A stretch of 64,000 nt of DNA from Escherichia phage vB_EcoM_REC, in sequence record OM386667.1, one strand, 5' to 3'. The notes under the pieces are model-generated. The model searched no databases and was not told the origin of the DNA. It was given only the letters and a program-made list of their open reading frames with translations. This document shows positions 2,498 to 45,584 of this stretch, one piece after another (the stretch's first letter is position 1; each line of letters begins with the position of its first letter). The position numbers and the translations under genes were made by a program.

Positions 2498-3613
2498 GTG
2501 GCAAATACATATTTAACTAACGTAGACTTTTCAGGAAAAGCTACGGAAGAGTCACTAGGTGCTCATATTGCTTACACTTTTGATTTTCAAGGTGGAGCGG
2601 CATCTGGTTATAATACCCCCCTTTTATTTAAGTCAGACGGATCTCCAGACATAACTTTTGAAAAGTTAGAAGCTCTCACTAAAATGGGAGAAGATGTTAC
2701 AGAGTTACGTAAAAGCTATATTCAACAAGTGATGGATCGCATTTCTGAAAAAGTGCGTGAAAAATTTGAAGCTGGTTGGGATTGGGTTTACGTTATTGAT
2801 GCTGACTTCGATGCGAACGTTGCAATTTTCTGTTCAGATAACGGTATGTTCTCTGTTGGCTTTAAAGTTGACGGACTGAATGTTGAAGTTGAAGAGGTTG
2901 CTAAACCTGTTGTTCGTGTTACTGATTATCAAGTTGTTGATGGTGATGTAATGATCTCCATTGATTTCTTTGAGGACGTTTTAGACGATGCTTTGAGTAA
3001 TCTCGTTAAGAGTTCCTTGAAACAAAGTCAAGTTAAAGATTATTTAGTGAAAGCTCACGCTAAAGCTAATACAAACTCTGTGGATGCAGAGGCTAACCCC
3101 GCAGGTGATAAATCTGCAAACACAACTGGAATCAATAAAGGAGAAACCCCTTTGGAAAATATCAACAAAGAAGAATTCCTGAAATCTGCTGAATTCCAAG
3201 AACTGATGAAAGCACAGATCGCTGAAGCTGTAGAAAAAGCAGCCGCAGATGCACGTGCAGCCGCAGAACTTGAAGCACAGGAAAAAATCGCTAAGGCAGA
3301 ACAGGAAGCAGAAGAACTTCGTAAAGCTGAACAAGCTCGTATCGAAGAAGAATATACAACTGTTGTTAAATCCTATTCTTTCGTAGAAGAAGACAAAGTT
3401 GAAGCTCTCGTTAAATATCTGGTAGATAATAAAGATATCGCTGAAACTATCGTCAAAGCATTCGAAAAAGCACGTGCAGAAGTGGACGCAGTTAAGAAAG
3501 AATTTGGAGCAGAACGTGGTGTTGATGTGATCAATACTCAACCTGTAGCTAAATCTTCTTCTGAACTGATTAGTCAGAAAGCTGCTGAACTTAAAAAAGC
3601 CCAGAAACAATAA
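2498..3613 (+). CDS. putative capsid scaffolding protein
   Basis: 371 aa; C-terminal half is an Ala/Glu/Lys-rich predicted coiled coil (AEAVEKAAADARAAAELEAQEKIAKAEQEAEELRKAEQ); sits directly upstream of decoration and capsid genes. Confidence 0.55.
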   Translation: MANTYLTNVDFSGKATEESLGAHIAYTFDFQGGAASGYNTPLLFKSDGSPDITFEKLEALTKMGEDVTELRKSYIQQVMDRISEKVREKFEAGWDWVYVIDADFDANVAIFCSDNGMFSVGFKVDGLNVEVEEVAKPVVRVTDYQVVDGDVMISIDFFEDVLDDALSNLVKSSLKQSQVKDYLVKAHAKANTNSVDAEANPAGDKSANTTGINKGETPLENINKEEFLKSAEFQELMKAQIAEAVEKAAADARAAAELEAQEKIAKAEQEAEELRKAEQARIEEEYTTVVKSYSFVEEDKVEALVKYLVDNKDIAETIVKAFEKARAEVDAVKKEFGAERGVDVINTQPVAKSSSELISQKAAELKKAQKQ

Positions 3614-38736: not shown

Positions 38737-38904
38737 TTATACCTCTAAACGGAAAGTTTCTTTAGATACAAAATCGTATCCACCTTTTTCAAGCCAGTCA
38801 TTGTAAACCTCATCAGCTTGAGACTCTATCATAAAATACCGAGTGGTAATTTCGTCTCCGACAATACGCACAATTTTATAGCAAATCATGATACCATTTC
38901 CCAT
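38737..38904 (-). CDS. small hypothetical protein (about 55 aa, below ORF-track cutoff)
   Basis: ATG at 38904 preceded by GGAGGAAG RBS; TAA at 38737-38739; translation MGNGIMICYKIVRIVGDEITTRYF... Confidence 0.3.
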   Translation of the reverse strand: MGNGIMICYKIVRIVGDEITTRYFMIESQADEVYNDWLEKGGYDFVSKETFRLEV

Positions 38905-39095
38905 TAATCTTCCTCCAGATCAATTTCATTATAGCAATGTATGCAGTAGCCATCGTTGTGCATATGTTGTTCATAAGACATATCTTTACCACAAGACCAA
39001 CAACGAATATCGCCATCGTCCCATTCACGTTCTTCTTCGCCTTCAAATGCATCTGGTAGGTAAGGCATACCAAGACAATCTAAATCGTAATGCAT
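38904..39095 (-). CDS. small Cys-rich (zinc-ribbon-like) protein
   Basis: ORF 38904-39179 trimmed to the ATG at 39095, which has an AGGAGG RBS; motifs CWSCG...CIHC. Confidence 0.35.
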   Translation of the reverse strand: MHYDLDCLGMPYLPDAFEGEEEREWDDGDIRCWSCGKDMSYEQHMHNDGYCIHCYNEIDLEED

Positions 39096-39108
39096 ATCTC
39101 CTCCTATA

Positions 39109-39126
39109 AAGGGGCAGAAGCCCCTT
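39109..39126 (-). terminator. stem-loop downstream of DNA polymerase gene
   Basis: Stem AAGGGGC/GCCCCTT with 4-nt loop; weak U-tract. Confidence 0.35.
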
Positions 39127-39144
39127 ATAAAACAATATGTTAGA

Positions 39145-42100
39145 TCAATGACAGGATGCCCAGGAATTACCCACGTCATATCCGGCAGTAAGCTGAACGT
39201 TAAGATTGTAAAATTCTCCAGCCTTAGTAACAGCTAAAGCAGCAAGTTCACCTGCCCGACTATAAGCTGTAAACCATCCACCTTTGGGAGATTCATGAAT
39301 GTTAGCCCAAATTTGCCCTGTCTCTTTTTCCTTATTATGCTTCCATTCTTCAACTTTAGCAAGGCATTCTTTATCAATTTTCTTTTGTTCTTCAGGATCG
39401 TCTACTTTCTTCCAACCTAATGATTCAGGTGAAAACCATTTGAATTCTACAAGGTTACGAGAAACTTCAAGCTGGGCTTCATCGTGGTATGCAATCATTT
39501 GTTGCACGAAGTCTTTATTCTTCCAGTCATCTTTAAAGAAGTCAACACTTAGTCCTTCTTCTTCGATCATATCGTCATAAATAACCATTGCACGTTTAGC
39601 ACAGATAACCCCACCACTTTGGAACAGAGAGTTAAGAATCGCGTGAGCAGAACGAGTAGGAACCTTACGACCGTCAATACCCAAAACATACTGTTTACCA
39701 GTCTTAACCCAGAAATCGTTTAAACGTTCTTTAAGACGCGCCAGTGGGAATGCAGCTTCCCAGAAAGCATCGAACACCAGTTGCCCTGTAAACTTATCGC
39801 TACCAATTGTTTTAGCAACCTTGTCGGCTTGTGCACCATAGGTAATACCATACTTAACAGATTTAGCAGGACTACGTTCAAATTTACGTCCAATAGTTTC
39901 AGTGATACGTTTTGCCATCATGGTATGAACATCGTTAGGCTTCTCTAACAAGAGAGCGTTACAGTATTCATGAGGCTCCGGTTCGTAGCGCCAACAGTTT
40001 CCTGTGATGGTAATGCAGTCTTTCTGACGCATGACCCACGTACCAAGTTCTGTTTGTGGACACCAAACATCCTCTACACCCCACTCTTCAATAGTCAAAC
40101 TTTGAACAGGAATGTGAGAGCGGTTAGCCAATGTTACCACTTTTACTTTCTGCTCTTTTGTATTGAAAGCTACAGAGATATTGCCTCCATGCACCAGGTA
40201 CGAGGCAGTTAAAGCTGCTTCAAAAAGTTCACCTGGGTTCTGCGCCCAACGCCAAACAGGTTTTTGTTTATGTTCATGCCAGTAACCATCTGCAATCAAG
40301 AAACCTTCCAAGAAAGCTACACGCTCGGCATGAGACATATTAACTACACGCTCTACCCACGGAACATCCCATTTACCTTGTTGAACAGAAGTTAAACTAT
40401 TTACCTGATCTTGTTCCATGTTAAATGGAGCATTACAAATAATATTATCTCCTGTGCAAAGCTCGGCAGTTGTTCTGACTTTAGGCACATAAGTATTCCC
40501 TTTACTACGGGTATTAACATACCAACGGTGATCTGCTGTTGCACGGTAAGTGTGTGATTTCCCTTTAATCTCAAACGTCTTACTATTTTTATAGAAGACC
40601 TTACCTTTTACTTTAGTCCATTCTTTCAGACCTGTTTCAGCATTGTACCCTAAAATCTCATCCCCTTCCTTCAGGTCGTGATATCCTACCCAACCTTTAC
40701 GAGTCAAAGCTTGAGCATCCATCGGCACACAGTAATGTGATTCAATTTTTGCTTCCAAAGAGTCGAAGTCGTAGCCGATCTGGAAGTATTTAGGAACCTC
40801 TACACCAAACAAGTTACGCATCTCCCATCCAAACAAAGATGTGACACGAGGAATATTAGCTACAGATCTATGTTTCATACGAGAGGTTGCAGCATCACAT
40901 GTAGCGGCTGGTGTAGGAATACGCCCATCCGCCCTTACTGCGGCTAAGAAACCTTTATCGTATTCTTGATCTTCTTCATCTTCTTCCCAATCAGCACCGC
41001 CACCTAAAATAGAGTTCCTACGATGCTTATACGTTAAGTATTCTACAATCTGTGTAGCATAAGGAAATTTCTCACCCAAAGCTTGCAGGTTAGGACAAAT
41101 TTCTTTTTCCTGACCTTTGGTAAAACATGGGTTAGTCAATACTTTAAGACCGCGACCTTTACCTTTTGCTATACGCTCTTGAATCTTCCTTTCCAAAGTT
41201 TCCGGTGTGCACTCCAGATGATCACAACGATCCTGACAAAAATTAGAAGATAGAGTTTGCTCAACGTAAGCTCTAATACCTTTCTGAAGTTCTTCCTCGC
41301 TCTTTTTAATTTTGGTGCCAGATTTAAGCGTCAAGTCTTTATCTTTATATTCAGACGGTACCCAACCTAATCCTACGAGCCAGTTTTTAATATGGGTTGT
41401 ATCGTTCAATGTTGCAGGGATGTTAGGATCACATAGAGGCTCATCTGCTGCAACTGGCAGTTTCCACTCTTTCCCCCACATAACTAACCACCAATCGCCA
41501 TCCCTCTCTTCCAAATGACCATCATGTTTCTTAGCAAAATTGATCATATGGTTAGTTGGCTCTAAGTTCTTTTTAATTTGCAACTTAGGTGGAATAAAAG
41601 CCTTAAGATAACCTTTTGTTGCTGGTTTAGGTGGCAAAATAGGCTCAACGAGTAAACGAAGACGCTCCATTTCTGCATCCAAAAAAGCAAGGTTCTCTTC
41701 TGCTTGCTTCATGTTAAAAGCAAACCCACGGTGTTCCTGGCGTGTAATAATGTCTGCTACACGTTGTTCAAGTTCAAATGGACCTTCCCATTTATCATAA
41801 TCGCCCCATTCTTCCATAAGGTAATTATATACGCTCGTATTGGCTTTGTTGTCATAGATACAGTAATAAAGCATATCCGCAGCAAAAGTCTTAAATCGAT
41901 CTTCTTCTGGAATCTCTTTACGGAAATCTATTTTTACATCACCACCTGCTTTTCGAGAAAGTGCTGCCAAGCTATGTCCTGATTTGCCCTCAATCTTTCG
42001 ATCTGGGTTTAACACTTTACTCAAAATCAAGGAGTCAATAAGTTTTACCTTATTTTTGCCCCACGTATTATATTTAACACTGTAATCTAATCCATAAAAC

Positions 42101-42477
42101 AGTTTTGTAGCCAACCAGTCGTAGTTGATACCGTTGTGAGCCACAGCCATTTCAACCAGATATTCAGGCTTGTCTTTAAAATAACCTTCATGATTAATAA
42201 AATCTGGGAAATCTTTTAGTTGAAAATGTGTGTAATCTTGCGCCACATACTCTTTAAGAACATATGTGTATTTACCATCTGACTCTTCATAAGGACGCCC
42301 ATCAAAGATGTATTTAGGGCCATCGTGGAAAGCTACTATTTCTCCTGTTTCATGGTTCTCTAAGACAATACAGTGCATTTGAAATGTGTCTTTGAGACGA
42401 TAAGGACTAGCTAAATAATCAATAGTGTCATTATTCAACAATCCGTTTGCTTCAATATCCCATGTAAACTTACTCAC
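39145..42477 (-). CDS. family-A DNA polymerase with 3'-5' exonuclease domain, interrupted by an intein-like element
   Basis: 1110 aa; exonuclease motif DIEANGL; motif A-like YDFDSLEAKIESHY; motif B-like KSVKYGITYGAQ; motif C-like HDEAQLEV; about 245 aa insertion after motif A. Confidence 0.85.
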   Translation of the reverse strand: MSKFTWDIEANGLLNNDTIDYLASPYRLKDTFQMHCIVLENHETGEIVAFHDGPKYIFDGRPYEESDGKYTYVLKEYVAQDYTHFQLKDFPDFINHEGYFKDKPEYLVEMAVAHNGINYDWLATKLFYGLDYSVKYNTWGKNKVKLIDSLILSKVLNPDRKIEGKSGHSLAALSRKAGGDVKIDFRKEIPEEDRFKTFAADMLYYCIYDNKANTSVYNYLMEEWGDYDKWEGPFELEQRVADIITRQEHRGFAFNMKQAEENLAFLDAEMERLRLLVEPILPPKPATKGYLKAFIPPKLQIKKNLEPTNHMINFAKKHDGHLEERDGDWWLVMWGKEWKLPVAADEPLCDPNIPATLNDTTHIKNWLVGLGWVPSEYKDKDLTLKSGTKIKKSEEELQKGIRAYVEQTLSSNFCQDRCDHLECTPETLERKIQERIAKGKGRGLKVLTNPCFTKGQEKEICPNLQALGEKFPYATQIVEYLTYKHRRNSILGGGADWEEDEEDQEYDKGFLAAVRADGRIPTPAATCDAATSRMKHRSVANIPRVTSLFGWEMRNLFGVEVPKYFQIGYDFDSLEAKIESHYCVPMDAQALTRKGWVGYHDLKEGDEILGYNAETGLKEWTKVKGKVFYKNSKTFEIKGKSHTYRATADHRWYVNTRSKGNTYVPKVRTTAELCTGDNIICNAPFNMEQDQVNSLTSVQQGKWDVPWVERVVNMSHAERVAFLEGFLIADGYWHEHKQKPVWRWAQNPGELFEAALTASYLVHGGNISVAFNTKEQKVKVVTLANRSHIPVQSLTIEEWGVEDVWCPQTELGTWVMRQKDCITITGNCWRYEPEPHEYCNALLLEKPNDVHTMMAKRITETIGRKFERSPAKSVKYGITYGAQADKVAKTIGSDKFTGQLVFDAFWEAAFPLARLKERLNDFWVKTGKQYVLGIDGRKVPTRSAHAILNSLFQSGGVICAKRAMVIYDDMIEEEGLSVDFFKDDWKNKDFVQQMIAYHDEAQLEVSRNLVEFKWFSPESLGWKKVDDPEEQKKIDKECLAKVEEWKHNKEKETGQIWANIHESPKGGWFTAYSRAGELAALAVTKAGEFYNLNVQLTAGYDVGNSWASCH
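39997..40731 (-). other. intein-like (Hint domain) insertion within DNA polymerase
   Basis: Starts with Cys after ESHY; TxxDH block (TADHRW); LAGLIDADG-like LEGFLIADGYW; ends ...ITITGN followed by Cys (CWRY). Confidence 0.55.
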
Positions 42478-43271
42478 TATTCCTCCTTTCTAATGTTCTC
42501 CAGAACCCACTGAAGTTCTTTTAAACTTAAACTTCTTACTCCCGCAGTTTTACTAGCTTCAGCTTTAAGTAACGGGTAAGCCTCAATGATACGCGTTTTA
42601 AGATCAGAAGTCAAGGCTTTTAAAAAATAGGTAGATGCTTCAGATAAAGAATCTTCTTCTGATAACACTCTACCTGCACTTGCTCCCGCTCTCCTAACAG
42701 CTATATCGTAGTCTTTACTGTTACCTAATACGAATAGTCGATTCTCTCCTAAAACAACGGGAGAACGCTTCTCGTTGCGTTTAATCCATACCTGGAATAC
42801 ACAAGGAACATCCCAAGGTTCTCCATGAAGAATAAAAGATCCTTTTGGACATTCTTCTTCGTAAAGAAGATGCATATGGGGATTTAGTTTGTGTGCAAAA
42901 AAGATTTTTTGAAATGTGCGAGGCAAGATAAAACAAATACCACCTTCGTTATCCAGCATTTCAGCACAATGGTTAAAGAATTTAATGGCAAGACTAGCAT
43001 TTTTTCCAAATGGAGGATTACCGACAAAAGCAGTTACACTACCAACAGACTCAACAGATTGAGCTAAAAAATCTGCCTCAATACAATCTTCAAACTTAGG
43101 GTCAATATCAAAAGAAGTTATGTTTTTAAAACAAGAAGAGAAAGCTCCTTCTCCCGCAGATGGTTCTACGTAGTTAGCTTCCTCTCCAAAAATTTCTTTG
43201 ATCTTATCACATAAGAACCCCGCATAAGCGGGGTTAGTGTAATATTGATCAAGTGTGTTCAACTTGCTCAA
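42477..43271 (-). CDS. putative N6-adenine DNA methyltransferase
   Basis: 264 aa; motifs DQYYTNP, EPSAGEGAF (AdoMet-binding) and GNPPFG (catalytic NPPF). Confidence 0.55.
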   Translation of the reverse strand: MSKLNTLDQYYTNPAYAGFLCDKIKEIFGEEANYVEPSAGEGAFSSCFKNITSFDIDPKFEDCIEADFLAQSVESVGSVTAFVGNPPFGKNASLAIKFFNHCAEMLDNEGGICFILPRTFQKIFFAHKLNPHMHLLYEEECPKGSFILHGEPWDVPCVFQVWIKRNEKRSPVVLGENRLFVLGNSKDYDIAVRRAGASAGRVLSEEDSLSEASTYFLKALTSDLKTRIIEAYPLLKAEASKTAGVRSLSLKELQWVLENIRKEE

Positions 43272-43791: not shown

Positions 43792-43807
43792 AAGGGCCGA
43801 AGCCCTT
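43792..43807 (-). terminator. rho-independent terminator after primase-helicase gene
   Basis: Stem AAGGGC/GCCCTT with loop; minus-strand reading followed by TTATTAAAAA. Confidence 0.5.
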
Positions 43808-45584
43808 AATAGTTGCTATCCGTAGGCAAATTAGCAGGATTGTTGAAATACTGCTCTTTGTCATGCAGAGTTGCAGTTCTAATGTCATAGTAAAACTGCC
43901 CTGCCGGACCAGTTTCCGAGAACTCACGGTTTTTTAGGATAAAGCAATGAGTCGTATTGCGTTCTACAGGGTCTTCAGCGGCTTTATCTCGTTCCAAAGC
44001 CAAGGTAATACCAGCACCTTTAGCCAAGAAACTACTACCCATTGCATCGTCCTCTGTTAAGTGTTCATTGCCACCATTAGCCGATTTCTTAACGTGTGAG
44101 ATGACGATAATAGTTATAGCATACTCTTTCATAATGCGCTTCAACCATGTTGCTAACTCTTCTTGGGCTTGAACATCCATACCAGAAAGCAAATCAGAAT
44201 AAGGGTCGATAACAAGAATTGTTACTCCAAAATAGATGATCATCTCCAAAACTTTTTCTTTGATAGACTCCACATCTGCTCCACGATCATCACATACATA
44301 AAAACGTGGTGATCCATCTTCTCTTTCGTAAAAATCTAGGATTTTTTCTTTATTCTCTTCCAAGATTTGAAATTTCTCTTCCGGTGTTTTCCTGTGTAGA
44401 GGAATATGCAGGAACGAGGACAACAGGTTACGAGAATATTTCTTATAAGTTGCTTCCAAGGACAGGATACCTAGGGTATGTTCTGGGTGCGCAACAATAA
44501 TATGTTTGGTGATCTCGTTCACCATCAAAGTTTTACCGATACTGGTCTTTGCCAGGATGACTGTAATCTCTTCCTCTACTAAACCACCACCCAGCATGTT
44601 TGCAGCTACACGCATAAAAGGAGGCAAGGTAATCATCTTGGATTCCAAGCATTCTAATGCAGCTTCATACAAGACATTAGAAGCATAAACACCTGCTGGG
44701 GTGTATAGACGAGCACTCCAAAAAGCTTTTACGAAATCTTTTGCACGACCTTCTTCCAGATACTGATTGGCATCCTTAAGATCCATCTGCATACGGTAGA
44801 CTTTGTTACGAGGCAGCACCTTAACAATATTTTCAAATGCCTCATTACCTGCTTTATCATTATCCATGCAAACAATAATCTTCTTAAATTTTTCAAAGAA
44901 AGGATATTGTGCCTGAACTTGTTTATACATACTGGTTTCACCAGTTGTGCCACTAACTACTGCTGGAAGTTCATACTTGTTGTCCAAGTTTTCAGATAGC
45001 ATTTGATAAGCTGCCAGAGCATCGTGTTCACCACCTGTAATTACCACAGTATGAGAACGGTCTGCAAAACGAATTTGTCCAAAAAGATCTACATCTTTAC
45101 CTACTTGACCAATAGGTTTACTGAAATCTTTAGGATGAATACGACGCTTAAAACCAACCAATTCTTTACCGATAGTAGTCGGATATAAACAACTTTCTAC
45201 TACCATCTGATCCCCTTCCTGACGGTATTCATAACGAACACCATAGAAAGATGAAACTTTTTCTTTAATGCCTCGATAACCACGTGGGTTGGTTGATGTT
45301 TCTTGAACAATTTTACGATGAATCTGTTTATTAAATTCCGAACCCACAATCTCCTCCTCTTCTTCTAAAACTTCACCATTTTCTCGTAACCATTCTACGC
45401 TAGGAATAGTGTATTCACACGCAAAGCACTTAGCACCTTTATGCTCTCCATTAGAATCTAATCCATAAACCATCAGGTTATTACGAGAGCGATCCTTGCC
45501 ATTTTTCATGCAGCGCGGACAACCTGTATGCCCTTCCTTGCTAAGATCAACATCAAATCCATATTTAGTTATAATGTGCGACAC
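43806..45584 (-). CDS. DNA primase-helicase (T7 gp4-like bifunctional)
   Basis: 592 aa; N-terminal zinc ribbon CPRC...CFAC; TOPRIM-like VVITGGEHDALAAY; helicase Walker A AKTSIGKT and Walker B VIDPYSDLL. Confidence 0.8.
   Translation of the reverse strand: MSHIITKYGFDVDLSKEGHTGCPRCMKNGKDRSRNNLMVYGLDSNGEHKGAKCFACEYTIPSVEWLRENGEVLEEEEEIVGSEFNKQIHRKIVQETSTNPRGYRGIKEKVSSFYGVRYEYRQEGDQMVVESCLYPTTIGKELVGFKRRIHPKDFSKPIGQVGKDVDLFGQIRFADRSHTVVITGGEHDALAAYQMLSENLDNKYELPAVVSGTTGETSMYKQVQAQYPFFEKFKKIIVCMDNDKAGNEAFENIVKVLPRNKVYRMQMDLKDANQYLEEGRAKDFVKAFWSARLYTPAGVYASNVLYEAALECLESKMITLPPFMRVAANMLGGGLVEEEITVILAKTSIGKTLMVNEITKHIIVAHPEHTLGILSLEATYKKYSRNLLSSFLHIPLHRKTPEEKFQILEENKEKILDFYEREDGSPRFYVCDDRGADVESIKEKVLEMIIYFGVTILVIDPYSDLLSGMDVQAQEELATWLKRIMKEYAITIIVISHVKKSANGGNEHLTEDDAMGSSFLAKGAGITLALERDKAAEDPVERNTTHCFILKNREFSETGPAGQFYYDIRTATLHDKEQYFNNPANLPTDSNY

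Follow-up and report, generated by a model that had tools for sequence, protein, structure and literature searches.

The 64,000-nucleotide (nt) stretch of Escherichia phage vB_EcoM_REC that we analysed (sequence record OM386667.1; the window in what follows) contains the gene of a family-A (T7-like) DNA polymerase precursor that is interrupted by an intein. The gene (39145..42477; all features below lie on the minus strand unless stated otherwise) has a GTG start and encodes 1110 residues (~127.7 kDa). It was recognised from the list of open reading frames (ORFs), from a Pfam DNA_pol_A match in the C-terminal part of the protein (E = 2e-11, above the cut-off of that family) and from an alignment with the T7 enzyme. 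An earlier reading of the DNA letters (the sequence-only reading) had described a 1110-residue polymerase with a 245-residue insert at 39997-40731, and this insert maps exactly to residues 583-827. We consider it very probable that the insert is a functional, mobile, self-splicing intein.

The intein (245 residues, ~27.9 kDa; 39997..40731) consists of a Hint splicing domain that is split by one LAGLIDADG half-domain. It is preceded by the N-extein (residues 1-582; 40732..42477), which comprises the exonuclease domain and the N-terminal part of the polymerase domain, and of which motif A (YDFDSLEAKIESHY; 40732-40773) forms the last segment, directly before the intein. The C-extein (residues 828-1110; 39148..39996) was assigned by the T7 alignment and contains, according to the same alignment, motif B (RSPAKSVKYGITYGAQ; 39829-39876) and motif C (AYHDEAQ; 39472-39492). 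The insert reads CVPMD...ITITGN and is followed by CWRYEPEPHEY...NDVHT...KSVKYGITYGAQ. The predicted spliced junction of the polymerase is ...ESHY^CWRY... (the caret marks a junction here and below), and the empty insertion site at the DNA level is ...GAATCACATTAC^TGTTGGCGGTACGAG.... Because a TGT codon is found at both ends of the insert, its boundary in the DNA is ambiguous by one codon (3 nt). Inteins start with Cys and end with Asn, and therefore the boundaries of the sequence-only reading were chosen. The predicted spliced polymerase has 865 residues and a computed mass of ~99.7 kDa.

Identification of the insert as an intein

The junction-spanning, insert-free polymerase was aligned with the T7 DNA polymerase (gp5; E = 7e-19). 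The alignment is gapless at the junction and has motifs A, B and C in order: for motif A, GYDFDSLEAKIESHYCWRY stands opposite GIDASGLELRCLAHFMARF of T7, with GYDFDSLEAK opposite GIDASGLELR; for motif B, RSPAKSVKYGITYGA stands opposite RDNAKTFIYGFLYGA; and motif C is HDE. The insert thus falls inside the catalytic core, where it separates motif A from motif B, in line with the earlier claim that it lies between motif A and a downstream conserved block.

In a megablast search the polymerase gene matched those of phAPEC8-like E. coli myoviruses of ~150 kb (Phapecoctavirus, Stephanstirmvirinae), with vB_EcoM-Ro121c4YLVW as the best match (98.9%). The whole gene, insert included, is found in 33 of the 126 matching records, and many of the other records, including that of phAPEC8, match as two pieces that together amount to 78% of the query. 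Precisely these 735 nt are missing from the ~98-99% identical polymerase genes of phAPEC8, ESCO37, Ro121lw, ABPW7, ECO340P1 and Mt1B1_P17. The phAPEC8 polymerase, with its 865 residues, equals the window polymerase minus exactly 245 and reads ...ESHY^CWRY... across the empty site. Such an exact in-frame absence in near-identical genes is far beyond chance. The alignment with intein-free family-A polymerases (phAPEC8 and others, T7) confirms the insertion boundaries. The sequence-only reading had allowed for a polymerase subdomain shared by close homologs; instead, genes that are 98-99% identical lack exactly this segment. In polymerase phylogenies and phage taxonomy that are based on this gene the 735 nt should be removed first.

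The existence of the element is not new, as it has already been annotated in GenBank. In Escherichia phage PaulScherrer (Bas60 of the BASEL collection; MZ501100, bas60_0044) the gene is named "intein-containing DNA polymerase precursor" and carries mat_peptide features for polymerase and intein, and phage SD2 (PQ821640) gives its gene the same product name. The PaulScherrer intein occupies the same site, has 245 residues and is 97.6% (amino acids) and 91.7% (nt) identical to the window intein, but its host polymerase comes from another genus (Justusliebigvirus), with exteins that are 74.5% identical in nt. Its deposited mat_peptide (locus 2504-3238) is one codon off (VPM...GNC versus Cys1...Asn), because TGT flanks the insertion on both sides. 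On inteins, the BASEL paper says only that comparative annotation was used to identify them (PMC8594841), and neither that paper nor the two records give a splicing class, an endonuclease analysis or an experiment. No description of this intein was found in published papers in the literature searched, and a 2024 paper states that inteins were unreported in E. coli or coliphages (PMC11162368). Given the near-identical copies that GenBank records label as inteins, the existence of the intein adds little. The remaining interest is in its hybrid active site, composed of Cys1, a Trp-Cys-Thr (WCT) triplet and Gly-Asn, and in its conserved single LAGLIDADG half-domain. The catalytic residues and the half-size endonuclease domain of the intein are unusual and apparently undescribed.

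Most Phapecoctavirus records, those of the nearest relatives included, name the gene plainly 'DNA polymerase I', probably because the domain libraries nearly miss the insert. On the insert, the Pfam families Intein_splicing (E = 0.009; 16.3 bits versus a cut-off of 35.8 bits) and LAGLIDADG_3 (E = 0.14) both stayed below threshold, as did all intein and LAGLIDADG matches when Pfam was applied to the insert together with seven clade members, and an NCBIfam scan of the insert gave no match. These scores count against an intein; that the curated profiles nearly miss the insert also means that routine annotation would overlook the element. A phmmer search of the PDB with the single insert sequence gave weak intein matches only, with E of at least 0.07. 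The profile of the seven clade members, compared with the PDB, matched the inteins AceL NrdHF (E = 5e-6), NrdJ-1 (3e-5) and Spl DnaX (8e-4). The AlphaFold model of the insert had a predicted local distance difference test score (pLDDT) of 74 overall and of 85-90 in the Hint parts. Foldseek found 45 PDB matches for this model at E <= 0.001 (E down to 1e-6), every one of them an intein or a HINT domain. VMA inteins with an endonuclease head the list, together with the Ssp DnaB mini-intein and three class 3 inteins (AceL NrdHF, MchDnaB-1 and MsmDnaB-1).

The clade was collected in an exhaustive hidden Markov model (HMM) search, in which a 170-position Hint profile was compared with 1.84 billion cluster representatives. 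This yielded 7200 proteins at E <= 1e-3, 2805 at E <= 1e-10 and 257 at E <= 1e-30; a word-indexed protein search recovered just nine relatives of the intein. The residue frequencies given below refer to the 148 full-length domains among the best 150 HMM matches. The proposal that the insert is an intein is thus borne out by exact presence and absence, the T7 alignment, the HINT fold, the family profile and the conserved residues. A bacterial intein-like domain was rejected, given the presence of a +1 nucleophile and the conserved site in an essential gene. No further inteins of this clade were found in the six frames of the window. Some actinophage inteins carry antisense endonuclease genes, and the window intein was therefore examined for out-of-frame and antisense endonucleases. 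The sole candidate was an ORF of 80 residues on the plus strand (39970-40212), opposite the 3' part of the intein, which Pfam did not match and which probably arose by chance.

Mobility and the LAGLIDADG half-domain

The distribution of the intein is patchy: 34 phage records carry it, about a dozen carry an intein in motif B instead, and most of the 126 have neither. In a tree of the exteins, intein-bearing and intein-free alleles are interleaved, and the closest extein to that of the window is the one of the intein-free phage ESCO37 (0.50% difference). The nt identity to phi92 (Justusliebigvirus) is 91.7% for the intein and 74.5% for the exteins, with a synonymous divergence (dS) of 0.48 versus 2.8. 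Judged from these sequences, the intein has been transferred between genera. A co-conversion peak between genera was dropped as a candidate, as the 82-86% identity of the phi92 and Phapecoctavirus exteins near the site can be explained by amino-acid conservation.

Divergence peaks at the insertion site in the intein-bearing alleles (0.064-0.071 per site), whereas the intein-free alleles show 0.009-0.012 and no peak, and tracts of varying length flank the intein. The N-extein of the window (1746 nt) is 100% identical to that of the intein-free ESCO37 and has 45 differences from ESCO5, the nearest at position -7. The intein and the C-extein (735 + 852 nt), on the other hand, are 100% identical to ESCO5, with 26 differences between the C-extein and that of ESCO37. 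The polymerase gene is a chimera that two parents account for exactly, and its exchange point lies at most 7 nt from the 5' junction of the intein. Homology of 7 nt is hardly enough for an ordinary crossover. The chimera is as expected if a break at the homing site was repaired. It suggests that the intein moved recently, but it falls short of proof of homing, given possible unsampled donors with recipient-like flanks. In the scheme that we favour, the element would move between co-infecting Stephanstirmvirinae phages via recombination initiated at the empty site. Phages with and without the intein, whose polymerases are otherwise ~99% identical, can be grown on laboratory E. coli and constitute an unusually tractable system for homing and co-conversion in phage crosses.

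The single LAGLIDADG half-domain (intein residues ~120-205; 40117..40374) was delineated from the AlphaFold model, Foldseek and profile matches, conservation and the ratio of non-synonymous to synonymous substitution rates (dN/dS). It contains the motif AFLEGFLIADGYW (40279-40317), with Asp148 encoded at 40288-40290, and the conserved Gln164 (codon 40240-40242). Folded alone by AlphaFold with 35 homologues, the domain reached a pLDDT of 90, and the model shows the alpha-beta-beta-alpha-beta-beta core of the LAGLIDADG fold together with the conserved acidic residue that ends the motif helix. Foldseek matched it mostly to LAGLIDADG-fold proteins (I-CeuI on top, then PI-SceI, I-DmoI, WhiA and the bI3 maturase), with probabilities of 0.97-1.0, template modelling (TM) scores of 0.51-0.63 and root-mean-square deviations of 2-4 Å. 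In the sequence profile of the half-domain, Gln164 aligns with Q42 of I-DmoI.

Conservation was assessed in the 101 clade members of the size of the window intein, which are 23-51% identical to it. Lys120, the Asp148-Gly149 pair at the end of the LAGLIDADG motif, and Gln164 are each present in at least 90% of them, Trp125, Met132, Phe140 and Glu171 in at least 70%, and Y178-L are majority residues. Compared with phi92, the middle domain has 17 synonymous and 3 non-synonymous differences (dN/dS 0.04). Domains of 240-259 residues form the largest size class of the clade (96 of the 148), next to ~30 domains of 300-379 residues and 8 mini-inteins. The sequence-only reading had taken the middle region for a degenerate endonuclease remnant. 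This part of it did not hold, as the half-domain is complete, is under purifying selection, belongs to the commonest size class and has its key residues conserved.

The inference that we prefer is that the single half-domain would, as a dimer, make a double-strand break at the empty site. The evidence for such cleavage is indirect and consists of the patchy distribution, the transfer between genera and the breakpoint at the junction. An active single half-domain implies that an intein-with-intein dimer is needed to cut the empty allele, and we know of no characterised intein endonuclease in which such dimerisation for cutting occurs. The homodimeric single-motif enzymes I-CreI and I-CeuI, as well as I-DmoI, resemble the window domain in the alpha-beta-beta-alpha-beta-beta core with the motif Asp. 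However, they are free-standing, intron-encoded proteins of ~160-200 residues with extra C-terminal helices and pseudo-palindromic sites, whereas the window half-domain spans ~90-100 residues, is embedded in a Hint domain and has a putative target with no more symmetry than expected by chance. If the single half-domain is indeed active, it would represent a new arrangement for intein endonucleases.

Several points weigh against an active nuclease, and a number of them would fit a half-domain that is a structural or DNA-binding relic in an intein that still splices and that was spread by vertical descent and the general recombination of co-infecting phages, an alternative that we hold quite possible, if somewhat short of probable. 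More specifically, the Foldseek matches have E values of only 0.03-0.1, the domain being short, and the half-domain profile found almost solely LAGLIDADG enzymes but with marginal values (PI-PfuI, E = 0.015; I-DmoI, E = 0.07). The domain has a single motif, and not the two (blocks C and E) of a pseudo-dimer, and no second half-domain was found in all six frames of the window. To our knowledge, the characterised LAGLIDADG enzymes of inteins all have two motifs. Palindromic symmetry was counted because a homodimeric nuclease would favour a palindromic or pseudo-palindromic site of ~22 bp; near the empty site it amounts to 6/11 at best, which is not unusual for this gene, and the natural site of I-CreI has a symmetry of ~7/11 by our own count. 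WhiA, which is among the fold matches, illustrates that the LAGLIDADG fold can be non-catalytic, and the clade contains mini-inteins without the domain (P0005, P0008, P0009, P0024). In addition, intein-bearing alleles with recipient-like flanks do exist: ECO340P2 carries the intein between ESCO37-like proximal flanks, and if there were several donors with the intein, of which this is an example, ordinary recombination between phages could have produced the mosaic flanks.

A relic is nevertheless difficult to reconcile with the strongly purifying selection that acts on the domain (dN/dS 0.04) and with the conservation of the motif Asp-Gly and of the equivalent of I-DmoI Q42 in at least 90% of the 101 relatives. 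The size class of ~245 residues (96 of 148) is the commonest one and not a rare product of decay. Moreover, the dS of the intein between genera is far below that of the exteins, and the breakpoint within 7 nt of the junction leaves a homology that is too short for an ordinary crossover.

Active site and route of splicing

The intein blocks were numbered as defined in Tori et al. 2010 (PMC2807308). Block A (CVPMDAQALTRKGW; 40690..40731) starts with Cys1 (polymerase C583; codon 40729-40731), which is present in 148 of the 148 relatives. Block B (TYRATADHRWYV; 40516..40551) holds Thr65 (B:7) and His68 (B:10), both likewise invariant, and Trp70 (B:12; 144 of 148), the W of the WCT triplet. Block F (EDVWCPQTELGTWVMRQ; 40024..40074) contributes Cys224 (F:4; polymerase C806; codon 40060-40062), found in all 148. 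Block G, CITITGN plus the +1 residue (39994..40017), comprises Thr243 (G:5; 145 of 148), Gly244 (G:6) and Asn245 (G:7; polymerase N827), the last two again without exception, and is followed by the +1 Cys (polymerase C828; codon 39994-39996), a position at which the relatives have Ser (77), Thr (48) or Cys (23). The features listed by the sequence-only reading, namely an initial Cys, a TxxDH block (the TxxH of block B, in RATADHRWY), the motif LEGFLIADGYW and a Gly-Asn end followed by Cys, are thus all present, and its catalytic residues Cys583, Asn827 and Cys828 are supported by the conservation in the clade.

In place of the His that typically precedes the terminal Asn in block G, Gly244 is found. 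The triplet of the class 3 inteins, which the sequence-only reading had not mentioned, is complete (W70, C224, T243). Cys224 lies 21 residues ahead of Asn245, a spacing shared with the class 3 inteins MP-Be DnaB (C320/N341), Msm DnaB-1 (C118/N139) and Mle DnaB (C124/N145). The likeness to class 3 inteins (MP-Be DnaB, Msm/Mch DnaB-1, AceL NrdHF) also extends to the phage association and to their place among the best structure and profile matches. There are clear differences as well. Class 3 was originally defined by the lack of a Cys, Ser or Thr at position 1, whereas the window clade has an invariant Cys1; class 3 inteins usually have His before the terminal Asn, whereas the clade has an invariant Gly; and the +1 residue is Ser or Thr in class 3 and Cys in the window intein. 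The predicted active site is a hybrid, with Cys1 and the block-B Thr/His as in class 1, Trp70/Cys224/Thr243 as in class 3, and an invariant Gly. A phage origin has been proposed for class 3 inteins, and the combination of Cys1, the class 3 triplet and the invariant Gly bears on how these arose.

The first attack could be made by Cys583 (Cys1) or by Cys806 (Cys224). In a class 3 route Cys806 (F:4) would attack the N-terminal junction first and Cys583 would be dispensable, whereas in a class 1 route splicing would start from Cys583. We consider the class 3 route possible but doubtful. It agrees with the full triplet at the defining positions and with class 3 spacing, with AceL NrdHF, MchDnaB1 and MsmDnaB1 among the top fold and profile matches, and with later work in which class 3 does not require an N-terminal nucleophile. 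Precedent exists too, as Tori et al. 2010 listed, among 37 inteins, three that have the WCT triplet with Ser1 or Cys1 (PMC2807308). In the definition of Hoffmann et al. 2020, class 3 inteins lack an N-terminal Cys, which leaves out the window clade. The invariance of Cys1 (148 of 148), however, argues for its use, and the block-B Thr (B:7) is equally invariant here, yet dispensable in MP-Be DnaB (PMC2807308). Furthermore, class 3 inteins rarely have Cys at +1, the Bethlehem RDF intein, a relative, was handled as class 1 by Kelley et al. (PMC5050341), and a WCT triplet that was grafted onto a class 1 intein gave no class 3 splicing (PMC7664689).

The Gly before the terminal Asn had been put forward as a reason to doubt splicing competence. 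This doubt is not sustained, as the Gly is invariant (148 of 148) and an intein with the same T-G-N ending splices. More specifically, the RDF intein of mycobacteriophage Bethlehem splices completely in E. coli, and its G316H mutant splices more slowly, with build-up of the precursor (Kelley et al. 2016, PMC5050341). Other splicing inteins without His before the terminal Asn have been documented as well (PMC4031507). We retrieved the Bethlehem RDF gene: its intein has 317 residues, starts with Cys, has Gly316, TANH in block B and VWC with the Cys 21 residues ahead of the Asn, ends with LTGN^S, and matches the clade profile from end to end (37.6 bits). This phosphoesterase intein thus resembles that of the window in Cys1, the block-B T..H, the block F:4 Cys and the T-G-N ending. 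It differs in being ~70 residues longer in the middle, in having Val for Trp at B:12 and in residing in another host protein, and it is a distant relative.

Compared with phi92, the whole intein has 55 synonymous and 6 non-synonymous differences (dN/dS ~0.02), and compared with KP13-16 it retains 90.6% of its residues at saturated synonymous sites. These substitution patterns indicate that the whole intein is under strong purifying selection. In addition, carriers of the intein (phi92, ESCO5, PaulScherrer and others) are cultured lytic phages. For these phages to be viable, the polymerase, which the intein splits between motifs A and B, must be made whole again. Splicing is strongly inferred from conservation, purifying selection, carrier viability and a splicing relative. 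That the segment is a lineage-specific polymerase subdomain or a retained dead intein, with the 1110-residue protein as the active form, would agree with the sub-threshold Pfam scores and with splicing being predicted only, but it is very improbable and was rejected, since genes that are 98-99% identical lack exactly this segment, the T7 polymerase alignment has no gap at this point between motifs A and B, the HINT fold is full and every splicing residue is present, elements of this clade are found at several further sites in polymerases as well as in unrelated proteins, and a dead element would not keep its dN/dS at 0.02 both in and outside its catalytic positions.

In the mechanism that we propose, the polymerase would be translated as a 127.7-kDa precursor with the 245-residue intein between motif A and motif B. 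The Hint domain would excise itself through an N-terminal acyl shift or attack, followed by transfer to Cys828. Cyclisation of Asn827 and an S-to-N shift would then join ...ESHY to CWRY..., and the products would be the 865-residue T7-like polymerase and a free intein of 27.9 kDa. Inteins of family-B polymerases (archaeal PolB, Mimivirus PolB; PMC549080) similarly interrupt the catalytic motifs of a replicative polymerase, but the polymerase family is another one, and these inteins have the residues of canonical class 1 inteins, with a His-Asn ending, and endonucleases with two motifs.

A more far-reaching reading is that the intein belongs to a large, mostly phage-borne and apparently undescribed clade, which would combine a standard Hint domain with an active, dimerising LAGLIDADG half-domain and a hybrid Cys1, WCT and Gly-Asn site that is either a class 1/class 3 intermediate or a two-cysteine relay. 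With all its parts together we regard this as rather unlikely. Homing, dimerisation and the route of splicing are directly testable, as the intein resides in cultivable E. coli phages that have natural intein-free partners.

Related inteins and neighbouring genes

The nearest relatives of the window intein, 40-48% identical over the full 245 residues, are found in other family-A polymerases. They occupy the same site in P0031, P0039 and P0051 (...LE.R...HY^T(W/Y)(R/K)YDNG...), two sites in motif B (...AKTFIYA^TLYGAG... and ...RQxAKAH^TFAPLYGG...) and a ...TGR..HA^SPN... motif. An unrelated protein family, in which the junction reads ...FDVYP^SAYANGW..., hosts about 50 of the 148 domains. Weaker matches, to the N-terminal part, were obtained with inteins of the terminase, portal and tape-measure proteins of Gordonia phages. 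The two best clade matches, the metagenomic P0010 and P0011, are metallophosphoesterase-like, a host protein type that is the same as that of the Bethlehem RDF intein. Each has two clade inteins at tandem sites, ...QKLAE^C...TGN^SFQGGEKP... and ...HYHKFD(Y/H)^C...TGN^CYPR....

The motif-B intein of phage nepoznato (MN850571) belongs to the same clade. It has 324 residues (polymerase residues 633-956), is 33% identical to the window intein and ends with TGN^C. Its position in motif B (KSVKYG^...^C-TYGAQ) is 50 residues downstream of the site used in the window and corresponds to ~39850 of the latter. It has two LAGLIDADG motifs, and the window intein aligns with the second only. The motif-B intein is also found in nieznany, ukendt, phiWec187 and AV126, and these phages and nepoznato are without an intein at the window site. 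After splicing of the motif-B intein, motif B would read KYGCTYG versus KYGITYG. At the empty site of nepoznato (window equivalent 39960-40760) the +1 residue is Thr (ACG) instead of Cys (TGT), with dense substitutions within ~30 nt downstream; this variant could be a target that is resistant to the putative nuclease of the window-type intein.

Four records labelled 'Campylobacter phage' (MG065639, MG065645, MG065656 and MG065689; A150, A145, C3 and A110a; ~146 kb) match the Phapecoctavirus polymerase and carry the motif-B intein, with scores equal to those of the E. coli phages. They look like coliphage genomes that were labelled with a Campylobacter host.

The start of the polymerase gene has been annotated shorter in some relatives (the coding sequence of Ro121c4YLVW has 3234 nt). 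The upstream ORF (42477-43271, minus strand) ends on the first base of the GTG start, a 1-nt overlap at 42477 that suggests translational coupling; it is labelled N6-adenine methyltransferase in relatives and has no Pfam match here. At the other end, a Cys/His-rich ORF of 91 residues (CWSCG...CIHC; 38904-39179, minus strand), also without a Pfam match, overlaps the final 35 nt of the polymerase gene. It may encode a small zinc-ribbon protein, or its true start may be at a later ATG. The polymerase gene lies in a T7-like replication module, with a Toprim and DnaB_C primase-helicase at 43806-45584.

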